64,000 nt of DNA, taken from positions 39,866,001 through 39,930,000 of the forward strand of contig OZ024747.1 of assembly GCA_964016885.1 (NCBI GenBank), read 5' to 3'. The translations under genes and the position numbers were made by a program. Every line of letters begins with the position of its first letter. Positions within the stretch are counted from its first letter, which is position 1. This document shows positions 1 to 60,464 of the stretch, piece after piece. The notes under the pieces are model-generated. The model saw nothing but the letters and a program-made list of their open reading frames with translations. It ran no database searches and was not told the DNA's origin. The DNA comes from Eledone cirrhosa (taxonomy: Eukaryota).

Positions 1-161
1 TCCACGTCTCTTTCTACGCCTCCTCTTACATCCTCATTACAACCTGATTCTGTTACCCAGAGATTTACCCATCTGCATTGTTGAGGCTTCCAAAACCACC
101 ATTTTTATTATTCTACAATGCTTCAAGCAAACCGCAGCACTACATATATATATATATATAT

Positions 162-352
162 AGGAACGAGTAGGACCCCGACGGCTGAGCTCAAGCCGTT
201 TCGACAGCTAATTCTGGACTAGAATTAGCCGTCGAAACGGCTTGAGCTCAGCTGTGGGGGTCCTACTCGTTCCTATTACCCACTCTACAACACTAAGTAT
301 TGAGTACTTTGGTGCGTTATAGTCCACCTGGTTCCTTACCACATTTCCTTCG

Positions 353-354
<2 letters not shown>
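162..354 (+). mobile_element. Short fold-back derivative of the Neptune-like element at 53103-57084 (family A), inserted in (TA)n
   Basis: Inverted arms AGGAACGAGTAGGACCCCGAC.../...GGTCCTACTCGTTCCT plus a one-sided ~80-nt extension; same termini as 53103-57084; TA tracts on both sides. Confidence 0.85.
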
Positions 355-2949: not shown

Positions 2950-3141
2950 AACGGAAGAAATGTGGTAAGGAACCAGGTGGACCATAACGCACCAAAGTAC
3001 TCAATACTTAGGGTAGTACAGTGGGTAATAGGAACGAGTAGGACTCCGACGGCTGAGCTCAAGCCGTTTCGACGGCTAATTCTGGTCCAGAATTAGCCGT
3101 CGAAACGGCTTGAGCTCAGCCGTCGGGGTCCTACTCGTTCC

Positions 3142-10580: not shown

Positions 10581-10782
10581 AGGAACGAGTAGGACCCCGA
10601 CGGCTGAGCTCAAGCCGTTTCGACGGCTAATTCTGGACTAAATTTAGTCCAGAATTAGCCGTCGAAACGGCTTGAGCTCAGCCGTCAGGGTGCTACTCGT
10701 TCCTATTACCCACTCTACTAACCTAGTATTGAGTACTTTGGTGCGTTATGGTCCATCTGTTTCTTTACCACATTTCCTTCGT

Positions 10783-10783
<1 letters not shown>
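10581..10783 (+). mobile_element. Family A short fold-back copy
   Basis: Same termini as 162-354 with a slightly deeper palindrome centre (CTAAATTTAG). Confidence 0.85.
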
Positions 10784-47220: not shown

Positions 47221-48032
47221 CTTTCTTTATTTGCCACAGGGGTGTACAAAAATGGGACATTAAAAGACCTGACGGCGGGGGTATTACATAAAAATAACTT
47301 TAACATTAATAAATAATAAACTATATATAATAAAATAACAATTGAAATCCCCAATAGGGGGGAGAACGTTACTGCAGAGTTGTTTTACACCCTGTGGATA
47401 GAAAAACCCTCAACACCAGCAACACGTTTTGTAGGTGTTCCTGTCTTCCCTCTGTTTATCTTCCTCAACCTACAGATTTATATACAGAGAAGGCCCATTC
47501 ACTCAGGCCATTTTCGCCACATTCATCCACCTTTCAGCGAATTTACTGTAGCACCTCTCTCTCCACTCTCACCTTCCTTCTGAAGTGATACTTAAAGAAG
47601 GGGATAAGTTGTTGTCCGGAGAGAAAGGTGTTTGCTCTCAGTCCGTTTAACCTCGTCCACCATATTACCTCTTTCACCATAGCCACCGGACTGAGGAAAA
47701 CCGCCTCTCCTTCGTTCTTAAATGAAGGCGGCGGGGTGATCCTCACGATGGACTCGACTGACAACTGGATGCGTCCTACACGTGACAGCAGCTGTTCGAC
47801 ATAATTCCACAGGTCGGTCACCCCTAGGCACTGAACAATTGCGTGCAGAACGGTTTCGATGTCCTGCTCGCATCTTGGACAGGTTCTTTTGGCAGGATCT
47901 CTGCCAGGGCGTCCGTGCCTGTAGATATTGTCTCGAACTGGTAGATCTCCTCGGTACCACTGCCAGGCCAGAAACCTCTGGATGTTATCCATAGGCTCTA
48001 GACGGAAAGTCCTCCCGAACAGACTGGTCAGT
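47221..48032 (-). mobile_element. 5'-truncated Tx1/L1-clade LINE with 17-bp TSD
   Basis: Zinc knuckle CPRCEQDIETVLHAIVQC after FLAWQWYRGDLPV; TSD AAAGTCCTAAATGATAT at 47204-47220 and 48033-48049. Confidence 0.85.
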
Positions 48033-48374
48033 AAAGTCCTAAATGATATACCAGGAAAACAGGGTTGTGGCCATTTCCATCACATCAAAGGGAAATGTAT
48101 ACGCATGTGTATATCGGCGATGAATAGCAGCCACCAATATTTGCTCTATGCAAATGTGTCGATCGGCGGCAGTGATGTCCCAGACTACCAAATAATCGAT
48201 ACATACGGAGAACATAACATCCCCAAATCTGGATGAATGGCATCATCGCGGTTGATGGGCTCCAAGATCGACAATATGTCTGCATATGCTACAGGTTTTT
48301 TGATTACATAAATTTCGCACGGTATCAGCCCAGGCCATGTCAAACATAACAGTAATACTTGGCAATGACGTACA

Positions 48375-49534: not shown

Positions 49535-50509
49535 GTTTGTCCTCATCAGTGGCCTTCCAACCGTCGTAGGCATTTCGTCGCATTAAAGGCCATATACCTC
49601 AGGTTGGTGCGAGCAACGGCTAAAAAAAGTCGTTGGGACACGTAAATAAAGGGGACGCTAGGGTAAACAAACAAAATGGTTTAAGCAACAGAAAGTGATG
49701 AAGAAGAAAGAAACAAGTCCCAGATTTCTATGAATATAAATTCGGTGGAATCGTGAACGAGAGAATAAAGACCATCAAACCTGGTTGAAATGTGAGCAAG
49801 GAAGGAATTTCGCACAGGTCTAACGGGAGGAAGAATGGGTCTGGTCTGCGAATTCGGTAAACATAAGTTCTGTGAAGTCGCAGACGAGAGAGAGAGAGAA
49901 AAAAAATTCAAACCGGCTTGGCCTAGTGCGCGCCAGAAAAGGATTACGGACAGGTCAAACGGGAAGAAAGGGGAGGAGGAGAGGTAGTGACAGAGAGTGA
50001 GTGAGTGAAAGGTGAGGAAGAGGCTAACAGAGAGAGAGAGAGACTGCTAGAAGGGGTAAAGACACAAAGAACGAAACAGACTGGTGGCAGCGGAGGAAAA
50101 AATATATGTGTAAATATGATAATAAATGGAGCTGCGGCGCTGCAAATGGGTTACATATGAAAAAGTTTGTCCTCATCAGTGGCCTTCCAACCGTCGTAGG
50201 CATTTCGTCGCATTAAAGGTCAAACGGGAAGAAAGGGGAGGTCACGATTCCACCGAATTTATATTCATAGAAATCTGGGACTTGTTTCTTTCTTCTTCAT
50301 CACTTTCTGTTGCTTAAACCATTTTGTTTGTTTACCCTAGCGTCCCCTTTAATTACGTGTCCCAACGACTTTTTTTAGCCGTTGCTCGCACCAACCTGAG
50401 GTATATGGCCTTTAATGCGACGAAATGCCTACGACGGTTGGAAGGCCACTGATGAGGACAAACTTTTTCATATGTAACCCATTTGCAGCGCCGCAGCTCC
50501 ATTATTATC

Positions 50510-51765: not shown

Positions 51766-52673
51766 AATGTTACCATCTAATGTTACCACCTAATGTTATC
51801 ACTTAATGTTACCACATAATGTTACCACCTAATGTTACCACCTAATGTTACCACCTAATGTTATCACTTAATGTTACCACATAATGTTACCACCTAATGT
51901 TACCACCTAATGTTACCACCTAATGTTACCACCTAATGTTACCACCTAATGTTACCACCTAATGTTACCACCTAATGTTATCACTTAATGTTACCACCTA
52001 ATGTTACCACCTAATGTTACCACTTAATGTTACCACCTAATGTTACCACCTAATGTTATCACTTAATGTTACCACCTAATGTTACCACCTAATGTTACCA
52101 CTTAATGTTACCACCTAATGTTACCACCTAATGTTACCACCTAATGTTACCACCTAATGTTACCACCTAATGTTATCACTTAATGTTACCACCTAATGTT
52201 ACCACCTAATGTTACCACTTAATGTTACCACCTAATGTTACCACTTAATGTTACCACCTAATGTTACCACTTAATGTTACCACCTAATGTTACCACCTAA
52301 TGTTACCACCTAATGTTACCACTTAATGTTACCACCTAATGTTACCACTTAATGTTGCCACTTAATGTTACCACCTAATGTTACCACCTAATGTTACCAC
52401 TTAATGTTACCACTTAATGTTACCACCTAATGTTACCACCTAATGTTACCACCTAATGTTACCACCTAATGTTACCACCTAATGTTACCACCTAATGTTA
52501 CCACCTAATGTTACCACCTAATGTTACCACCTAATGTTACCACCTAATGTTACCACTTAATGTTACCACCTAATGTTACCACTTAATGTTACCACCTAAT
52601 GTTACCACTTAATGTTACAACCCAATGTTACTACCTAATGTTACCACTTAATGTTACCACCTAATGTTACCAC
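51766..52673. repeat. 13-bp minisatellite (AATGTTACCACCT), ~70 copies
   Basis: Direct inspection; variants ATCACTT and ACCACTT interspersed. Confidence 0.95.
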
Positions 52674-53053: not shown

Positions 53054-53104
<51 letters not shown>

Positions 53105-53195
53105 CGAATGAGATGTGGTAAGGAACCAGGTGGACCATAACGCACCAAAGTACTCAATACTTGAGGTAGTAGAGTGGGTAATAGGAACCAGTAAG

Positions 53196-53289
53196 ACCCC
53201 GACAGCTGAGCTCAAGCCGTTTCGACGGCTAATTCTGGACTAAATGAAAATTTATCCTGGTATTTAAATAGCCGATCTTCTCAAGGGGT
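53196..53289 (-). ncRNA. Type I HHR, U3-A8 variant (left arm)
   Basis: Mirror of 56978-57071. Confidence 0.75.
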
Positions 53290-54376
53290 AATTCCATATA
53301 TGGTCAAAGTGATTGTCAAAAATCAGTAGTAATTCTGTGGTTGCAAATTAGTAGGGGAGATGGTGGCTAAACCTGCCAGTAGGAGAAAGAGGGGAGGGGG
53401 TGGAGTAGGCCCAATCAAGCGTTGGTAGTGCCAGCTACAGCTGGGCATGAGGTCAAAGAAGATACAGAGGAGGGGGAGGGGGAGGAAGTCGGAACGGTAG
53501 GTAGAACAATGGGGGTAGAAATAGGAAAGAAAAAATACTGAGAGTGAAGAAAAGCAAATAAGTGTAAAGAAAAAGTAAAGTAAATTAAATTCTACGACCT
53601 AGGTGTCAGGCTATTGTTAGGCTAGAATAAAAAAAGAAAGAAAGAAGTAAATAAATAAATAAATAAATAAATAACGAAATAAGTAAAAGAACTAGGTGGG
53701 ACGAAATAGGCAAGGACCCTTTTAAGAGGTATAAGTACGTAAATGATACGGTGACGGGTCAACAAAAGGGGCCAAAATACTAAAGAGACTACCACGAAAT
53801 AAACAATAAAGGTTTCCATCCCGGGCCAGCAACGACCCAGTGCAGCAAAGTGAACTTGTACGAGATAATAATTCTGAGTCCCGAGAAAAATATATACTAA
53901 TGCTAACTCTAAAAGATCTAAAACAAGCTACATGAAAGTTCGTACGAAATAAAGGTAGAATACGGAGAAATAAATTCAGAATCCACCCCGCCCAGAAGAA
54001 AAGCGAAGCAAGAAATTCTGAAACGAAAAAATAAGGCATAAGTGCCACTAAGAAATATAGAGGGCACAGAGAATAGTGGGAGCGGTCGGAAAAAGGGGGC
54101 AAGTATCCGGGGTCTAAGCCAACTGCTATAAAGGGCGGAGTCCGCCAAATCTATCATATACTAGGGGAGGGGGTGGTGGGGGTACTAAGGCTACATGGGG
54201 CCGAAGGGCAGCCTCGGGTGGGCGAGAAAAGACGCCGACAAAGGAGAAGAGCTAGGGTAGAAGGACAAAGGAGAGAGGGGGAAGGAAATAAAGGAAGCGA
54301 TAAAAGAATACAAAGAAGATCTTACGTCTTCCTTGGCAAGCAGGGGTTACCCATTGCAAAATCGGCAAGTGGGGTG

Positions 54377-55145
54377 TTATAGCCCTAGTCTACCCCCCCC
54401 CCCCCCACCCGGGTCATTATGGGGTTTGAGGGCGAGGTAAGTCCTACGCAATCTATGTTTACATGCAGTAACCAGTTCATCTTTCTTGTTTAGGAGTTGG
54501 TCCGTCGAAAACAGCATTTGTAAAGTTTCCTCCGAGCATAAATTGCACGGACGGCGTCCTCCCGTGTAAGAATTGGCTCTGGACAGTAATCTCCAAGTGA
54601 GATCATAGGTGATGTTGTTGTCCTTGAGGTCCCATATGTGGCCCGAAAGTGTAGTGGCGTGACGCCGGGCCGGGTTTCGGAAGGTATGTCTATGTTGGTA
54701 TAGCCGGGTCTTGAAGTCACATGCGGTAAGTCCTATATAGGCTTTGTTGGAGGTATCCGTCCTCACGTTGCACTGGTAGATCACATTACGGTCTCTGCAT
54801 CTATTGTCGAGTGGGCAAATAGATCTATCCGGGCAGTTACACCTCCTGGTCGGTTCTCCACTGCTATTTAGGTTATTTCTGCCATCGGGGTTGAGTTTTT
54901 TGTTGTTAGAGGAGACGATGTTTTGTGCGAAGTTTGGTGTAGTGCTGTAAGAGAGTTTAATGGTATTTTTGTTATTTATGTTGTGGTAGCGGTGTTGTAA
55001 TGGGAAGTGTTTTTCAATGAGCCTAAAGAATAGTTTCCCGATGGGAGTAGTCACCTCTGCGTTGTGGGGAGGATTGAACCATGTTATATTGCGTGAGCGG
55101 CGGTGTCTCCTGCTGGTTCCGTTAATGGGAGCTGGAGGAGACACC
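54377..55145 (-). CDS. Truncated Neptune-type GIY-YIG endonuclease region (left arm)
   Basis: NITWFNPP, CNCPDRSICPLDNRC, VIYQC...YIGLT..FKTRLYQH, CNLCSEE. Confidence 0.9.
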
Positions 55146-55147
55146 GG

Positions 55148-55876
55148 AACGGAACCAGCAGGAGACACCGCCGCTCACGCAATATAACATGGTTCAATCC
55201 TCCCCACAACGCAGAGGTGACTACTCCCATCGGGAAACTATTCTTTAGGCTCATTGAAAAACACTTCCCATTACAACACCGCTACCACAACATAATTAAC
55301 AAAAATACCATTAAACTCTCTTACAGCACTACACCAAACTTCGCACAAAACATCGTCTCCTCTAACAACAAAAAACTCAACCCCGATGGCAGAAATAACC
55401 TAAATAGCAGTGGAGAACCGACCAGGAGGTGTAACTGCCCGGATAGATCTATTTGCCCACTCGACAATAGATGCAGAGACCGTAATGTGATCTACCAGTG
55501 CAACGTGAGGACGGATACCTCCAACAAAGCCTATATAGGACTTACCGCATGTGACTTCAAGACCCGGCTATACCAACATAGACATACCTTCCGAAACCCG
55601 GCCCGGCGTCACGCCACTACACTTTCGGGCCACATATGGGACCTCAAGGACAACAACATCACCTATGATCTCACTTGGAGATTACTGTCCAGAGCCAATT
55701 CTTACACGGGAGGACGCCGTCCGTGCAATTTATGCTCGGAGGAAACTTTACAAATGCTGTTTTCGACGGACCAACTCCTAAACAAGAAAGATGAACTGGT
55801 TACTGCATGTAAACATAGATTGCGTAGGACTTACCTCGCCCTCAAACCCCATAATGACCCGGGGGGGGGGGGGTAG
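55148..55876 (+). CDS. Truncated Neptune-type GIY-YIG endonuclease region (right arm)
   Basis: Same protein as the left arm except HNIINK vs HNINNK and poly-G length; no genuine start codon. Confidence 0.9.
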   Translation, partial: NGTSRRHRRSRNITWFNPPHNAEVTTPIGKLFFRLIEKHFPLQHRYHNIINKNTIKLSYSTTPNFAQNIVSSNNKKLNPDGRNNLNSSGEPTRRCNCPDRSICPLDNRCRDRNVIYQCNVRTDTSNKAYIGLTACDFKTRLYQHRHTFRNPARRHATTLSGHIWDLKDNNITYDLTWRLLSRANSYTGGRRPCNLCSEETLQMLFSTDQLLNKKDELVTACKHRLRRTYLALKPHNDPGGGG

Positions 55877-56977
55877 ACTAGGGCTATAACACCCCACTTG
55901 CCGATTTTGCAATGGGTAACCCCTGCTTGCCAAGGAAGACGTAAGATCTTCTTTGTATTCTTTTATCGCTTCCTTTATTTCCTTCCCCCCTCTCTCCTTT
56001 GTCCTTCTACCCTAGCTCTTCTCCTTTGTCGGCGTCTTTTCTCGCCCACCCGAGGCTGCCCTTCGGCCCCATGTAGCCTTAGTACCCCCACCACCCCCTC
56101 CCCTAGTATATGATAGATTTGGCGGACTCCGCCCTTTATAGCAGTTGGCTTAGACCCCGGATACTTGCCCCCTTTTTCCGACCGCTCCCACTATTCTCTG
56201 TGCCCTCTATATTTCTTAGTGGCACTTATGCCTTATTTTTTCGTTTCAGAATTTCTTGCTTCGCTTTTCTTCTGGGCGGGGTGGATTCTGAATTTATTTC
56301 TCCGTATTCTACCTTTATTTCGTACGAACTTTCATGTAGCTTGTTTTAGATCTTTTAGAGTTAGCATTAGTATATATTTTTCTCGGGACTCAGAATTATT
56401 ATCTCGTACAAGTTCACTTTGCTGCACTGGGTCGTTGCTGGCCCGGGATGGAAACCTTTATTGTTTATTTCGTGGTAGTCTCTTTAGTATTTTGGCCCCT
56501 TTTGTTGACCCGTCACCGTATCATTTACGTACTTATACCTCTTAAAAGGGTCCTTGCCTATTTCGTCCCACCTAGTTCTTTTACTTATTTCGTTATTTAT
56601 TTATTTATTTATTTATTTACTTCTTTCTTTCTTTTTTTATTCTAGCCTAACAATAGCCTGACACCTAGGTCGTAGAATTTAATTTACTTTACTTTTTCTT
56701 TACACTTATTTGCTTTTCTTCACTCTCAGTATTTTTTCTTTCCTATTTCTACCCCCATTGTTCTACCTACCGTTCCGACTTCCTCCCCCTCCCCCTCCTC
56801 TGTATCTTCTTTGACCTCATGCCCAGCTGTAGCTGGCACTACCAACGCTTGATTGGGCCTACTCCACCCCCTCCCCTCTTTCTCCTACTGGCAGGTTTAG
56901 CCACCATCTCCCCTACTAATTTGCAACCACAGAATTACTACTGATTTTTGACAATCACTTTGACCATATATGGAATT

Positions 56978-57071
56978 ACCCCTTGAGAAGATCGGCTATT
57001 TAAATACCAGGATAAATTTTCATTTAGTCCAGAATTAGCCGTCGAAACGGCTTGAGCTCAGCTGTCGGGGT
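56978..57071 (+). ncRNA. Type I HHR, U3-A8 variant (right arm)
   Basis: ACCCC-UUGAGAA-GAuCGGCUA...UAGCCGUC-GAAA-CGGCUUGAGCUCAGCUG-UC-GGGGU. Confidence 0.75.
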
Positions 57072-57193
57072 CTTACTGGTTCCTATATATATATATATAT
57101 ATATATACATATTAGGAAAATAAGAAAAAAAGGAAGAAAATACTGTTGGGATTTTCTTATAGAATAGAGCAAGATATTTTTTTTAAGTAATTT

Positions 57194-57482: not shown

Positions 57483-57654
57483 TTAGTACTACTACTAGTA
57501 GTAGTAGTAGTAGAAGAAGAAGAAGAAGAAGAAGAAGAAGAAGAAGAAGAAGGTGTGGTAGTAAAAATAGGGGTATAGTAAAGGAGGGAGGAAAAGACTA
57601 AGGAGGAGAAAGAGAAGGAGACGATGGGCGGTGTGTTAGTAATATTATTAGGTG

Positions 57655-58000
57655 TTATATGCTTTGACGCATAAAGTCAATCTGAATTCAAATCCCGCCG
57701 AGGTCAACTTTGCCTTTCATCCTTACGGGTTCGATAAAAATAAAGTACCAGTAATGTACTGGCTAATTGTTGGCCTTGTGCCAAAAAGTAGAAACAATTA
57801 TTATTAGTAGTTGTGTGGATTGGCAGTATCGGTAGAGGGTCGGACGCCATGCTTTGACGCATAGAGTTACGGCCCTTGCCATTCTGAGTTCAAATCCCGC
57901 CGAGGTTAACTTTCATCCTTACGGGGTCGATAAAAATAAAGTACCAGTAATGTACTGGGTAATTGCTAGCCTTGTGCCAAAAGTAGAAACAATTATTAGT
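57655..58000 (+). mobile_element. Two tandem tRNA-derived SINEs
   Basis: B box TTCAAATCCCGCCGAGG, shared core and (ATT)n tails. Confidence 0.85.
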
Positions 58001-59099
58001 AGCAGTAGTAATAGAAGCTGTCCGTGGGACTGACCTTAAAATATATTTATCTTTCTTAGTATTAGAATTAATTTGTCCATTGTTGTTATAGTTGGGTTGT
58101 TGTAGCAGTTTCGTCTGTGGTGGATGCATTTAAACGGGGTTCACATTTTGTGATAAAGTATGATTATTTGCTAATGCGTTGACTGTGGGTAGCGTTGTCT
58201 TTAAATTATATATATATATATATATATATATACATGTGTGTGTGTGTGTGTGTGTGCTTGATTGTATGCATGCACATATACATGTCCGTATAAAAACACA
58301 AACCCACATGCGGTCACAAACACACACATATACACACACACAGACACACACATACACACACACACACAGGCACACACAGGCACACAGATGCACGCACACA
58401 CACACACACACACATATATATATACACACACACACATTCATTATAATAACGCTAAATAGTGAGTCTTGTTACGCTGAAGTTTTTCCTGTTTATCATAGTA
58501 TGTGTGTATGTCTGTCTGTGTGTATGTGCGTGTGTGTACGTGCACGTGCGTGTGTATGTGTATGTATTTGAGTGTATATGTATTCGTGTTTGTATGTCCA
58601 CAGAATGGAATAACACCATACATGTCATATAAACAAACAACTCTAAACTAATCCCAAAACAGTCATTTGCTGATGTCATTTAAACAAACGAGCTTCCTCA
58701 ACGTGGCAAGGGTTATCACTTATTTTTTAGATACTAGACACTTAAATATATTCTTCATGCAAATTATTTCTAGTTGATATGTCTTCTATTTTATATCATG
58801 GAATCATTATATAGTAAGATTAACATAATAGTAAAATGGCCGTCTATCTTTCATCAGATATCACACATAATTGATTAAAAGATACAATCGCAACAAGCGG
58901 CTAAAATAGATTAATGTCTCAAATTTATAACTGATGAAATAGAAAAATACTTGTGTGACATGTGTGCAGTGGAATGTACGAATATATACATTAACAGACA
59001 TACACACGCACACACACACAGTCAGTCGATCGACTTTCGTCAAATCGGACCGAGGAAACAATGCTATTACTATCTATCGTCGCAACTCCAGATAGAAGG

Positions 59100-59292: not shown

Positions 59293-59298
<6 letters not shown>

Positions 59299-60464
59299 GG
59301 AAAAAATGAAACGATATTTCATTTCCCACTCTTAGTACGGCTGTTACTTAAATATAAGTATGTACACGTACATACATATATGTATACCGACGTACAGTAG
59401 TATGTATATATATATATACATACATGCACACATATATATATGCACGTATGGATTCACCGAACATTTATTATAATGCTCGGTGTGTTTGTAAACAAACATC
59501 CCGTATTAAGCCGTAGTGTCTAGCAACCACCGTTGCTTGTTTGTTCAACACTGACAAAGGAACGCTGTACTAGTTTCAAGCTTGTTAGCTATCGTCAGCA
59601 ACGTATACCTTCCTGCCAGATTGTTGAACGTATATACTTACCTTATGCATATTAACGGCTGAGTAGCCCAATTTGCATATCGAGTGGGTTAATCGGCCGG
59701 GTGCACCGAAAACGATAAACGGAAAAAATGAAACGATGTTTCATTTCCCACTCTTAGTACGGCTGTTACTTAAATATAAGTATGTACACGTACATACATA
59801 TATGTATACCGACGTACAGTAGTATGTATATATATATATACATGCACACATATATATATATGCACGTATGGATTAATATGGACACTACGGCTTAATACGG
59901 GATGTTTGTTTACAAACACACCGAGCATTATAATAAATGTTCGGTGAATCCATACGTGCATATATATATGTGTGCATGTATGTATATATATATATACATA
60001 CTACTGTACGTCGGTATACATATATGTATGTACGTGTACATACTTATATTTAAGTAACAGCCGTACTAAGAGTGGGAAATGAAATATCGTTTCATTTTTT
60101 CCGTTTATCGTTTTCGGTGCACCCGGCCGATTAACCCACTCGATATGCAAATTGGGCTACTCAGCCGTTAATATGCATAAGGTAAGTATATACGTTCAAC
60201 AATCTGGCAGGAAGGTATACGTTGCTGACGATAGCTAACAAGCTTGAAACTAGTACAACGTTCCTTTGTCAGTGTTGAACAAACGAGCAACGGTGGTTGC
60301 TAGACACTACGGCTTAATACGGGATGTTTGTTTACAAACACACCGAGCATTATAATAAATGTTCGGTGAATCCATACGTGCATATATATAAGTGTGCATG
60401 TATGTATATATATATATACATACTACTGTACGTCGGTATACATATATGTATGTACGTGTACATA

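Follow-up and report, generated by a model that had tools for sequence, protein, structure and literature searches.

A U3-A8 hammerhead motif in a young Hydra-clade Penelope-like element of Eledone cirrhosa and the history of its 3-8 pair

Introduction

Covariation to U3-A8 at positions 3 and 8 occurs in natural hammerhead ribozymes (HHRs), which are stated to be active (Perreault et al. 2011, PMC3088659). The same pair has been described in Penelope-like elements (PLEs), with approximately 1,300 matches in Schistosoma (Cervera and De la Pena 2014, PMC4209133), and that work gives a low in vitro activity for metazoan PLE hammerheads. The Cercyon PLE hammerheads of Schistosoma mansoni, described there, are of type I, lie in the pseudo-LTR, and have U3-A8 in place of C3-G8, a long helix II, a short helix I, the G10.1-C11.1 pair and a palindromic helix III/loop 3; most copies are truncated, and some form close inverted pairs.

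The features of the Hydra clade of PLEs were set out by Craig et al. (2021, PMC8557442; bioRxiv 2021.04.23.441226), and include a GIY-YIG endonuclease at the C terminus, the DKT, RW(R/K) and CxCX5C motifs, no CCHH, CxxC and CxH around the catalytic E and N, a (TA)n target, a hammerhead, and tandem and inverted arrangements with a tail. According to the same study, the role of hammerheads in endonuclease-bearing PLEs is unclear. Work on PAc, a Poseidon element from Anolis carolinensis (Frangieh et al. 2024, PMC11167929), showed that its tail is set by two internal start sites of reverse transcription, and that ribozyme cleavage needs the protein and is lost in the C3G or G8C mutants, with which insertion in vitro is unchanged. 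Here we describe a U3-A8 hammerhead motif in Eledone cirrhosa and trace its 3-8 pair through the family of elements that carries it.

Results

A type I hammerhead motif with a U3-A8 core

The motif occupies 56978..57071 on the + strand of the window, the 64,000-nt stretch of contig OZ024747.1 analysed here, and is assigned from its sequence, its minimum free energy (MFE) fold and a family alignment to the type I hammerheads, in the pseudo-LTR of a Hydra-clade PLE. Stem I is formed by ACCCC (56978-56982) and GGGGU (57067-57071), and the 5' core strand, U3 U4 G5 A6 G7 A8 A9 (UUGAGAA), lies at 56983..56989 (+). Helix II (56990..57043, +; fold and alignment) comprises the G10.1-C11.1 pair (56990 with 57043), an A-U pair, a bulged U, the 6 bp CGGCUA/UAGCCG, and a long, variable AU-rich extension. 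The segment 57044..57066 (+) holds GAAA (57044-57047), a 6-bp helix III (57047-57052 with 57060-57065) closed by loop III, UGAGCUC (57053-57059), with its palindrome GAGCUC, and the GUC triplet, so that C17 is at 57066 and the predicted cut follows C57066. Past a 6-nt bulge, six further pairs (56972-56977 with 57078-57083) extend helix I over 56972..57083 (+), and it is at the base of this extended helix, C17+17, that the insertion has its short end.

The MFE fold was the three-helix hammerhead with an unpaired core and an open helix I, as in type I. The preliminary description of this DNA had read a UUGAGAA core with stems I-III and a GUC site intact, which the sequence and the fold bear out; its palindrome in stem III is only partly there, as UGAGCUCA lies mostly in loop III and includes one stem base. 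The pair probabilities were 0.7-0.98 for stem I, 0.65-0.76 for the inner stem II, 0.62 for G10.1-C11.1 and 0.48-0.75 for helix III, and the overall stability was ordinary (z -0.96; 32 of 200 shuffles fold as well). All of the core set (U4 G5 A6 N7, A9, G12 A13 A14 A15.1, U16.1, H17 and G10.1-C11.1) is present in the window copy and across the family; the window copy also has the Watson-Crick 3-8 pair that is absent from the 1,638 C3·A8 and 69 U3·G8 matches of the lineage. Rfam at its gathering thresholds gave no match across the window, which fits the earlier expectation that a CUGANGA-only search would miss the motif, and the 3' half of the ribozyme had 8 matches in the window against 0.00 expected.

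For the helix III segment, the computed intermolecular duplex reached -24.1 kcal/mol, compared with -3.8 for the hairpin. On these energies hammerhead dimers via helix III are possible, though with a helix III of 6 bp they are not obviously required. The Eledone motif shares all of the Cercyon features listed above, and differs from the described Cercyon hammerheads (PMC4209133) in having a full 6-bp helix III with a 7-nt loop, no extra base between A9 and G10.1, a helix II extension of ~37 nt, and a Hydra-clade host.

The host is a young Hydra-clade Penelope-like element

A protein search of the genome gave 150 scored matches, all 99-100% identical over 231 aa, and several ORF copies lie in arrays with 3,531-bp spacing. 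The family is thus very young, in agreement with the young Penelope-like host proposed before. In a full unit (locus L056), a frame of 784 codons is open, and its first ATG, 190 nt after C17, gives a single ORF of 717 aa with a reverse transcriptase plus a GIY-YIG domain at the C terminus. This ORF has DKT at 117 (DKG changed), YRDD at 348, the CxCX5C linker at 572 and VIY..YIG at 591, one Cys between GIY and YIG, and no CCHH in the endonuclease; CNLC (CxxC) and CKH (CxH), both near its end, and RWR (RWK-like) were also read in it. Insertions of the lineage lie in (TA)n, as for Hydra-clade PLEs. By these motifs, the host element is assigned to the Hydra clade. The Neptune type, to which the host had been ascribed, is ruled out by the 717-aa ORF, in which CX2-5CxxC had no match, DKG is replaced by DKT, and the two-Cys CCHH is absent, with one Cys between GIY and YIG. 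A non-LTR retrozyme, that is, a short non-coding tandem unit with a hammerhead, was likewise ruled out, since the unit is 3,531 bp long and coding. The location of the motif had been given as a 3' UTR, which is incomplete: it lies in a pseudo-LTR and, in tandem units, 190 nt upstream of the first ATG of the next ORF.

Pfam returned no family for either the ORF remnant in the window or the full 717-aa ORF. Among 7,996 scored database proteins, 2,049 matched at E 1e-20 or better, and the 120 listed were 38-54% identical. The element shares the Hydra-clade features given above, including the tandem and inverted arrangements with a tail; compared with the elements described in PMC8557442, its unit is 3.5 kb rather than under 3 kb, its tail 80 nt rather than 30-40, and its hammerhead U3-A8 rather than canonical. 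The non-coding part upstream of the ribozyme (L056:3060-4172, compared with L070-L145) is ~70-79% identical between subfamilies and ranges in length from ~640 to 1,260 nt, so its divergence is much more rapid than that of either the ORF or the ribozyme.

Fold-back insertions in the window

The motif lies in a fold-back insertion. The right arm (55148..57083, +) is a 5'-truncated copy with the short end, followed by (TA)n, and the left arm (53104..55123, -) is an inverted 5'-truncated copy with the long end. The left arm carries a second hammerhead (53196..53289, -; C17 at 53201), identical to that at 56978-57071 and without mention in the preliminary description. Past C17, the right arm continues for 17 nt and the left arm for 97 nt, so that an 80-nt "tail" (53104..53183, -) separates the preferred ends at C17+17 and C17+97. 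Over their shared part the arms differ by one substitution and two homopolymer-length differences; both are truncated at about the same point and flanked by (TA)n. The ORF remnant (55160..55876, +) retains the CxCX5C linker and the GIY-YIG endonuclease, and the reverse transcriptase part is missing. The window copy is probably inert, because it is without a reverse transcriptase, has no ORF downstream, and would give a read-through RNA that pairs the ribozyme with its own antisense arm.

Three mini fold-back insertions of the same lineage and of one build lie in the window (163..353, 2951..3141 and 10582..10783) and contain only the ribozyme 3' half, each with one short and one long end. In these and in others genome-wide, which are placed in (TA)n, the 80-nt tail is found on one of the arms. 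For the 3' half alone there were 57,486 genomic matches, many of them close inverted pairs, versus 7,115 for the whole core. By these match counts, MITE-like 3'-half stubs are the commonest product of this Hydra-clade lineage.

Other repeats were seen in the window. A long 13-bp tandem array of a AATGTTACCACCT-like unit lies at 51770-52670, and two tandem SINE-like repeats of ~200 nt, with a 73-nt core 95% alike, lie at 57640-58010. A fragment at 47546-48079 (-) matches zf-RVT (PF13966) at E 7e-6, narrowly short of the cut-off, and is a remnant of another non-LTR retrotransposon. Further fold-back repeats in (TA)n/(CA)n at 59293-60000 and 50125-50503, with arms of 120 nt and 98 nt, are possibly stubs of other Penelope-like families.

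Insertion ends do not fall at the predicted cut

Ends were scored in 235 distinct ribozyme contexts, at loci picked by pattern or ORF length and not at random. The 3' ends fell at +15..20 in 80 contexts and at +94..103 in another 80, 54 continued, 21 ended elsewhere, and none of the 235 was at +5 or less. The 5' starts of 20 long copies were scattered from -1913 to +313, none of them at the cut (+1), and 15 copies read through the upstream ribozyme. Cleavage as the definer of insertion ends is thus ruled out for these non-randomly picked loci, and the absence of ends at the cut, together with the read-through, indicates that the template was whole across the cut site, whether it had never been cut or had been religated.

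This arrangement resembles PAc (PMC11167929), which has two start sites, an AT-rich target, a ribozyme near the ORF start and no RNA ends at the cut. The two differ in clade, in that the PAc ribozyme overlaps the start codon and has C3-G8, and in the evidence, as the behavior of PAc was measured in vitro whereas that of the Eledone element is deduced from genomic ends.

The 3-8 pair varies across the family

The relaxed motif search proposed in the preliminary description used the core plus GAAA, with C or U allowed at position 3 and A or G at position 8, and gave 7,115 genomic matches, compared with 2 for the reversed pattern used as a control. The matches, which count arms rather than insertions and come from exact patterns that undercount older families, divide into 5,385 U3-A8 (by subtraction), 1,638 C3·A8, 69 U3·G8 and 23 C3-G8. 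U3-A8, known as a tolerated but uncommon variant in hammerheads generally and described as such beforehand, is thus the majority state in this lineage, and is already published in PLEs. A pattern that did not constrain the core gave 5,380 matches, and among the first 100 of these U3 occurred in 74, C3 in 25 and G3 in 1; A8, U4, A6 and A9 were each found in 100/100 and G5 in 99/100. The conservation of UUGAGAA in other copies, which had been posed as a check, therefore holds for A8 and fails for U3, and since U3 varies while A8 stays, the 3-8 pair is not strictly compensatory in this lineage. With the 3'-half pattern, TCGAAA was intact in 88/100 matches.

C3 goes with its own loop II letters and arose by substitution, as the flanks align without gaps, which rules out an indel origin. 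G7 accompanies C3·A8 in 93 of its first 100 matches, and in the U3/G7 copies L096 and L097, N7 became G just before C3 appeared. C3·A7·A8 occurs in at least two copies (L121 and L220), related by their own loop II letters. A-to-I editing of A8, which would rescue C3 and feed G8, was rejected, since sporadic G8 was in no excess (~10 of 1,648 C3 versus ~23 of ~5,400 U3). The contigs of runs X1, X4 and X5 contained no intron-like joint and had no position-3 variant listed, and so give no independent show of the C3 subfamily.

An older subfamily, picked by loop II with the core free, had U3 in 29/30 and G8 in 28/30, with neither C3 nor A8. By blastn, 6 of 20 loci of this subfamily gave ORF fragments, at 80-84% identity to the young ORF. 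Deeper relatives are mostly CUGAYGA, and three metagenome relatives have CUGAGGA, with C3-G8. U3-A8 as a Hydra-wide trait is ruled out by these, since a hammerhead was found in three of eight metagenome loci and all three have C3-G8, in an identical ribozyme. As these 37%-identical relatives have C3-G8, U3-A8 is, by the sequences compared, lineage-specific.

Two observations concern more distant hammerheads. In the metagenome PLE relatives (L222:2391, L223:2233 and L224:4077; 36-37% protein identity), a compact canonical type I hammerhead with a GUA triplet lies just past the ORF. In a distant family (L184; G000:C440:38329, 64751, 91115 and 117976), four near-identical U3·G8 hammerheads share one contig at a spacing of ~26.4-26.9 kb and may belong to a large tandem repeat, with upstream ORF fragments 37-63% identical to the 717-aa protein.

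Between subfamily majorities, changes affect 2 of the 17 columns of the core (3 and 7), 4 of the 46 in stems and 12 of the 37 in loop II, the core figure being partly imposed by the pattern. The course of position 3 has a parallel in loop II, where position -65 likewise went T>C>T. In 25 chosen decayed copies, 81% of helix cells were paired, versus 24-47% in slid controls; their covariation does not exceed that of column shuffles, of which 42 of 500 reached the score and 61 of 500 the number of pairs changed on both sides (5).

C3·A8 elements lie between old and young U3-A8 elements

The ribozymes directly before an ORF start comprised 17 C3·A8/G7 (all), 20 regions from 52 matches, and the young ones. 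The identity of the associated ORFs to the young ORF was 80-87% for old U3-A8, 86-94% for C3·A8, 93-94.5% for U3-A8 with U7, and 99.7-100% for the young copies. For a tree built from the ORF only, 53 candidates were reduced by leaving out 6 that were short or partial and all young copies but 4, and one outgroup fragment was added, which gave 39 rows. This tree is a ladder in which 11 old U3-A8 rows are basal, followed by a 100/100 clade that opens with a C3·A8 grade; the young U3-A8 copies form a 100/100 clade, including one sporadic C3 copy, nested in that clade. The outgroup fills only 22% of the columns, and since the end branches shorten up the ladder, the order does not depend on it. Monophyly of the 14 C3·A8 rows was rejected by the AU test (p 7e-139; 33 rows, leaving out the outgroup, the sporadic C3 copy and four long-branch copies). 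As reconstructed from the ORF, the order is old U3-A8, then C3·A8, then young U3-A8.

The pN/pS between subfamily majorities was 0.15 on entry to the C3·A8 stage, 0.15 and 0.105 during that stage, and 0.07-0.10 on leaving it, and that of private changes in the five older groups was 0.25-0.52. From the early to the late C3·A8 stage, the ORF gained 67 synonymous and 25 replacement changes, and one C3·A8 copy (L196) keeps an open frame of 786 codons. The ladder tree, the low pN/pS and this open frame indicate that elements with C3·A8 served as working masters over a long period.

For the deepest steps (C3-G8 and U3·G8), the order comes from a midpoint-rooted tree of the short region and from ORF fragments 80-84% identical to the young ORF. 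Taken together, the sequences suggest that the 3-8 pair probably walked from C-G through U·G, U-A and C·A back to U-A, that is, through all four pyrimidine/purine states, within one autonomous master lineage, with more than 1,600 ribozyme copies made while the pair was C·A and the protein was under purifying selection. If so, PLEs either can transpose in vivo without hammerhead cleavage, or have in CUGAGAAG an active core that has not been described before, its register shifted to C3-G7.

Discussion

The reading that we favor, at slightly better than even confidence, is that the type I U3-A8 hammerhead in the pseudo-LTR of this young Hydra-clade PLE cuts slowly, or cuts only a fraction of the tandem transcripts, and that insertions are copied from RNA intact at the cut. 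The protein would nick (TA)n and start reverse transcription at two internal RNA sites, as Poseidon does in vitro, with uncut RNA as the template. Cleavage, perhaps with help from the protein or from dimerization through the loop III palindrome, would release a 5'-OH RNA in which a 190-nt leader precedes the ORF. Slow or conditional cutting with an intact template would explain where insertions end, why the core is kept and why the 3-8 pair is loose: with the cut off the insertion path, selection on this pair could have been loose enough for the walk. The many older copies with a C3·A8 mismatch indicate that the 3-8 pair was not needed for amplification; cleavage is likely weak, rescued or dispensable for spread. 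Against slow cutting, a template that was cleaved and religated into a circle would give the same ends.

The main alternative, which we consider unlikely though deserving weight, is that cleavage is essential, either because unit RNA is excised and religated to a circle or because the cut opens translation, and that the C3·A8 stage was rescued. The simplest rescue would be the pairing of C3 with G7 after a shift of register (CUGA-GA-A-G, with N7 lost and an extra base before G10.1), and others would be a protonated C·A pair or trans cleavage in a dimer with a U3-A8 transcript. The rise of G7 just before C3 and its prevalence among C3·A8 matches fit such a shift, as does the extra base before G10.1 in the published PLE consensus, CUGANGAH (PMC4209133 supplement). 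In addition, U3 came back while the other core bases stayed fixed, tandem arrays fit the circular-template model put forward in PMC4209133, and hammerhead cleavage can open cap-independent translation, as described in PMC13725137. Essential cleavage is at odds, however, with the at least two C3·A7·A8 copies that have common loop II letters (L121 and L220), with the amplification of the U3·G8 subfamily, and with the normal insertion in vitro of the ribozyme-dead Poseidon RNA described in PMC11167929.

It is rather improbable that the chemistry is irrelevant and that the fold persists as a signal, for protein binding or for the start of reverse transcription, or is a passenger. The exact match between the short end and the foot of the extended helix I, the absence of mapped ends at the cut, and the likeness of position 3 to loop II position -65 would all suit this possibility; Naiads, moreover, spread without hammerheads, and PMC8557442 raises the possibility that HHRs simply parasitize PLEs. 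Such a fold would not readily account for the single-stranded catalytic U4, G5, A6, A9 and GAAA, which are fixed over a summed synonymous divergence of ~0.4 with only a Y3/R8 swap allowed. Finally, a chance look-alike, or a decayed canonical ribozyme that gained U3 and A8 after insertion, has next to no probability and is refuted by the family data: the window fold is no more stable than shuffles and Rfam has no match, but the core is common to thousands of copies, identical young copies have it, and the canonical C3-G8 stands at the corresponding place in relatives, in the same frame.

Taken by itself, the U3-A8 core is already published. The hammerheads of PMC3088659 share it as compensated pairs, and repeat copies with core mismatches were filtered out there as cryptic mutants; neither a C3·A8 nor a U3·G8 subfamily is reported in the covered parts of PMC4209133. 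In the literature searched, there is no prior report of a C3·A8 or U3·G8 PLE subfamily, and the history of the 3-8 pair in this lineage is unreported. Searches demanding CUGANGA, as well as Rfam, miss thousands of such motifs.

The lineage offers a natural allelic series, C-G, U·G, U-A and C·A, with and without G7, on near-identical scaffolds and beside an intact, recently active ORF. It is a dated example of compensatory change in an RNA active site via both uncompensated intermediates. For the role of hammerheads in PLEs, the Eledone lineage provides genomic evidence that stands beside the in vitro insertion of ribozyme mutants described in PMC11167929.
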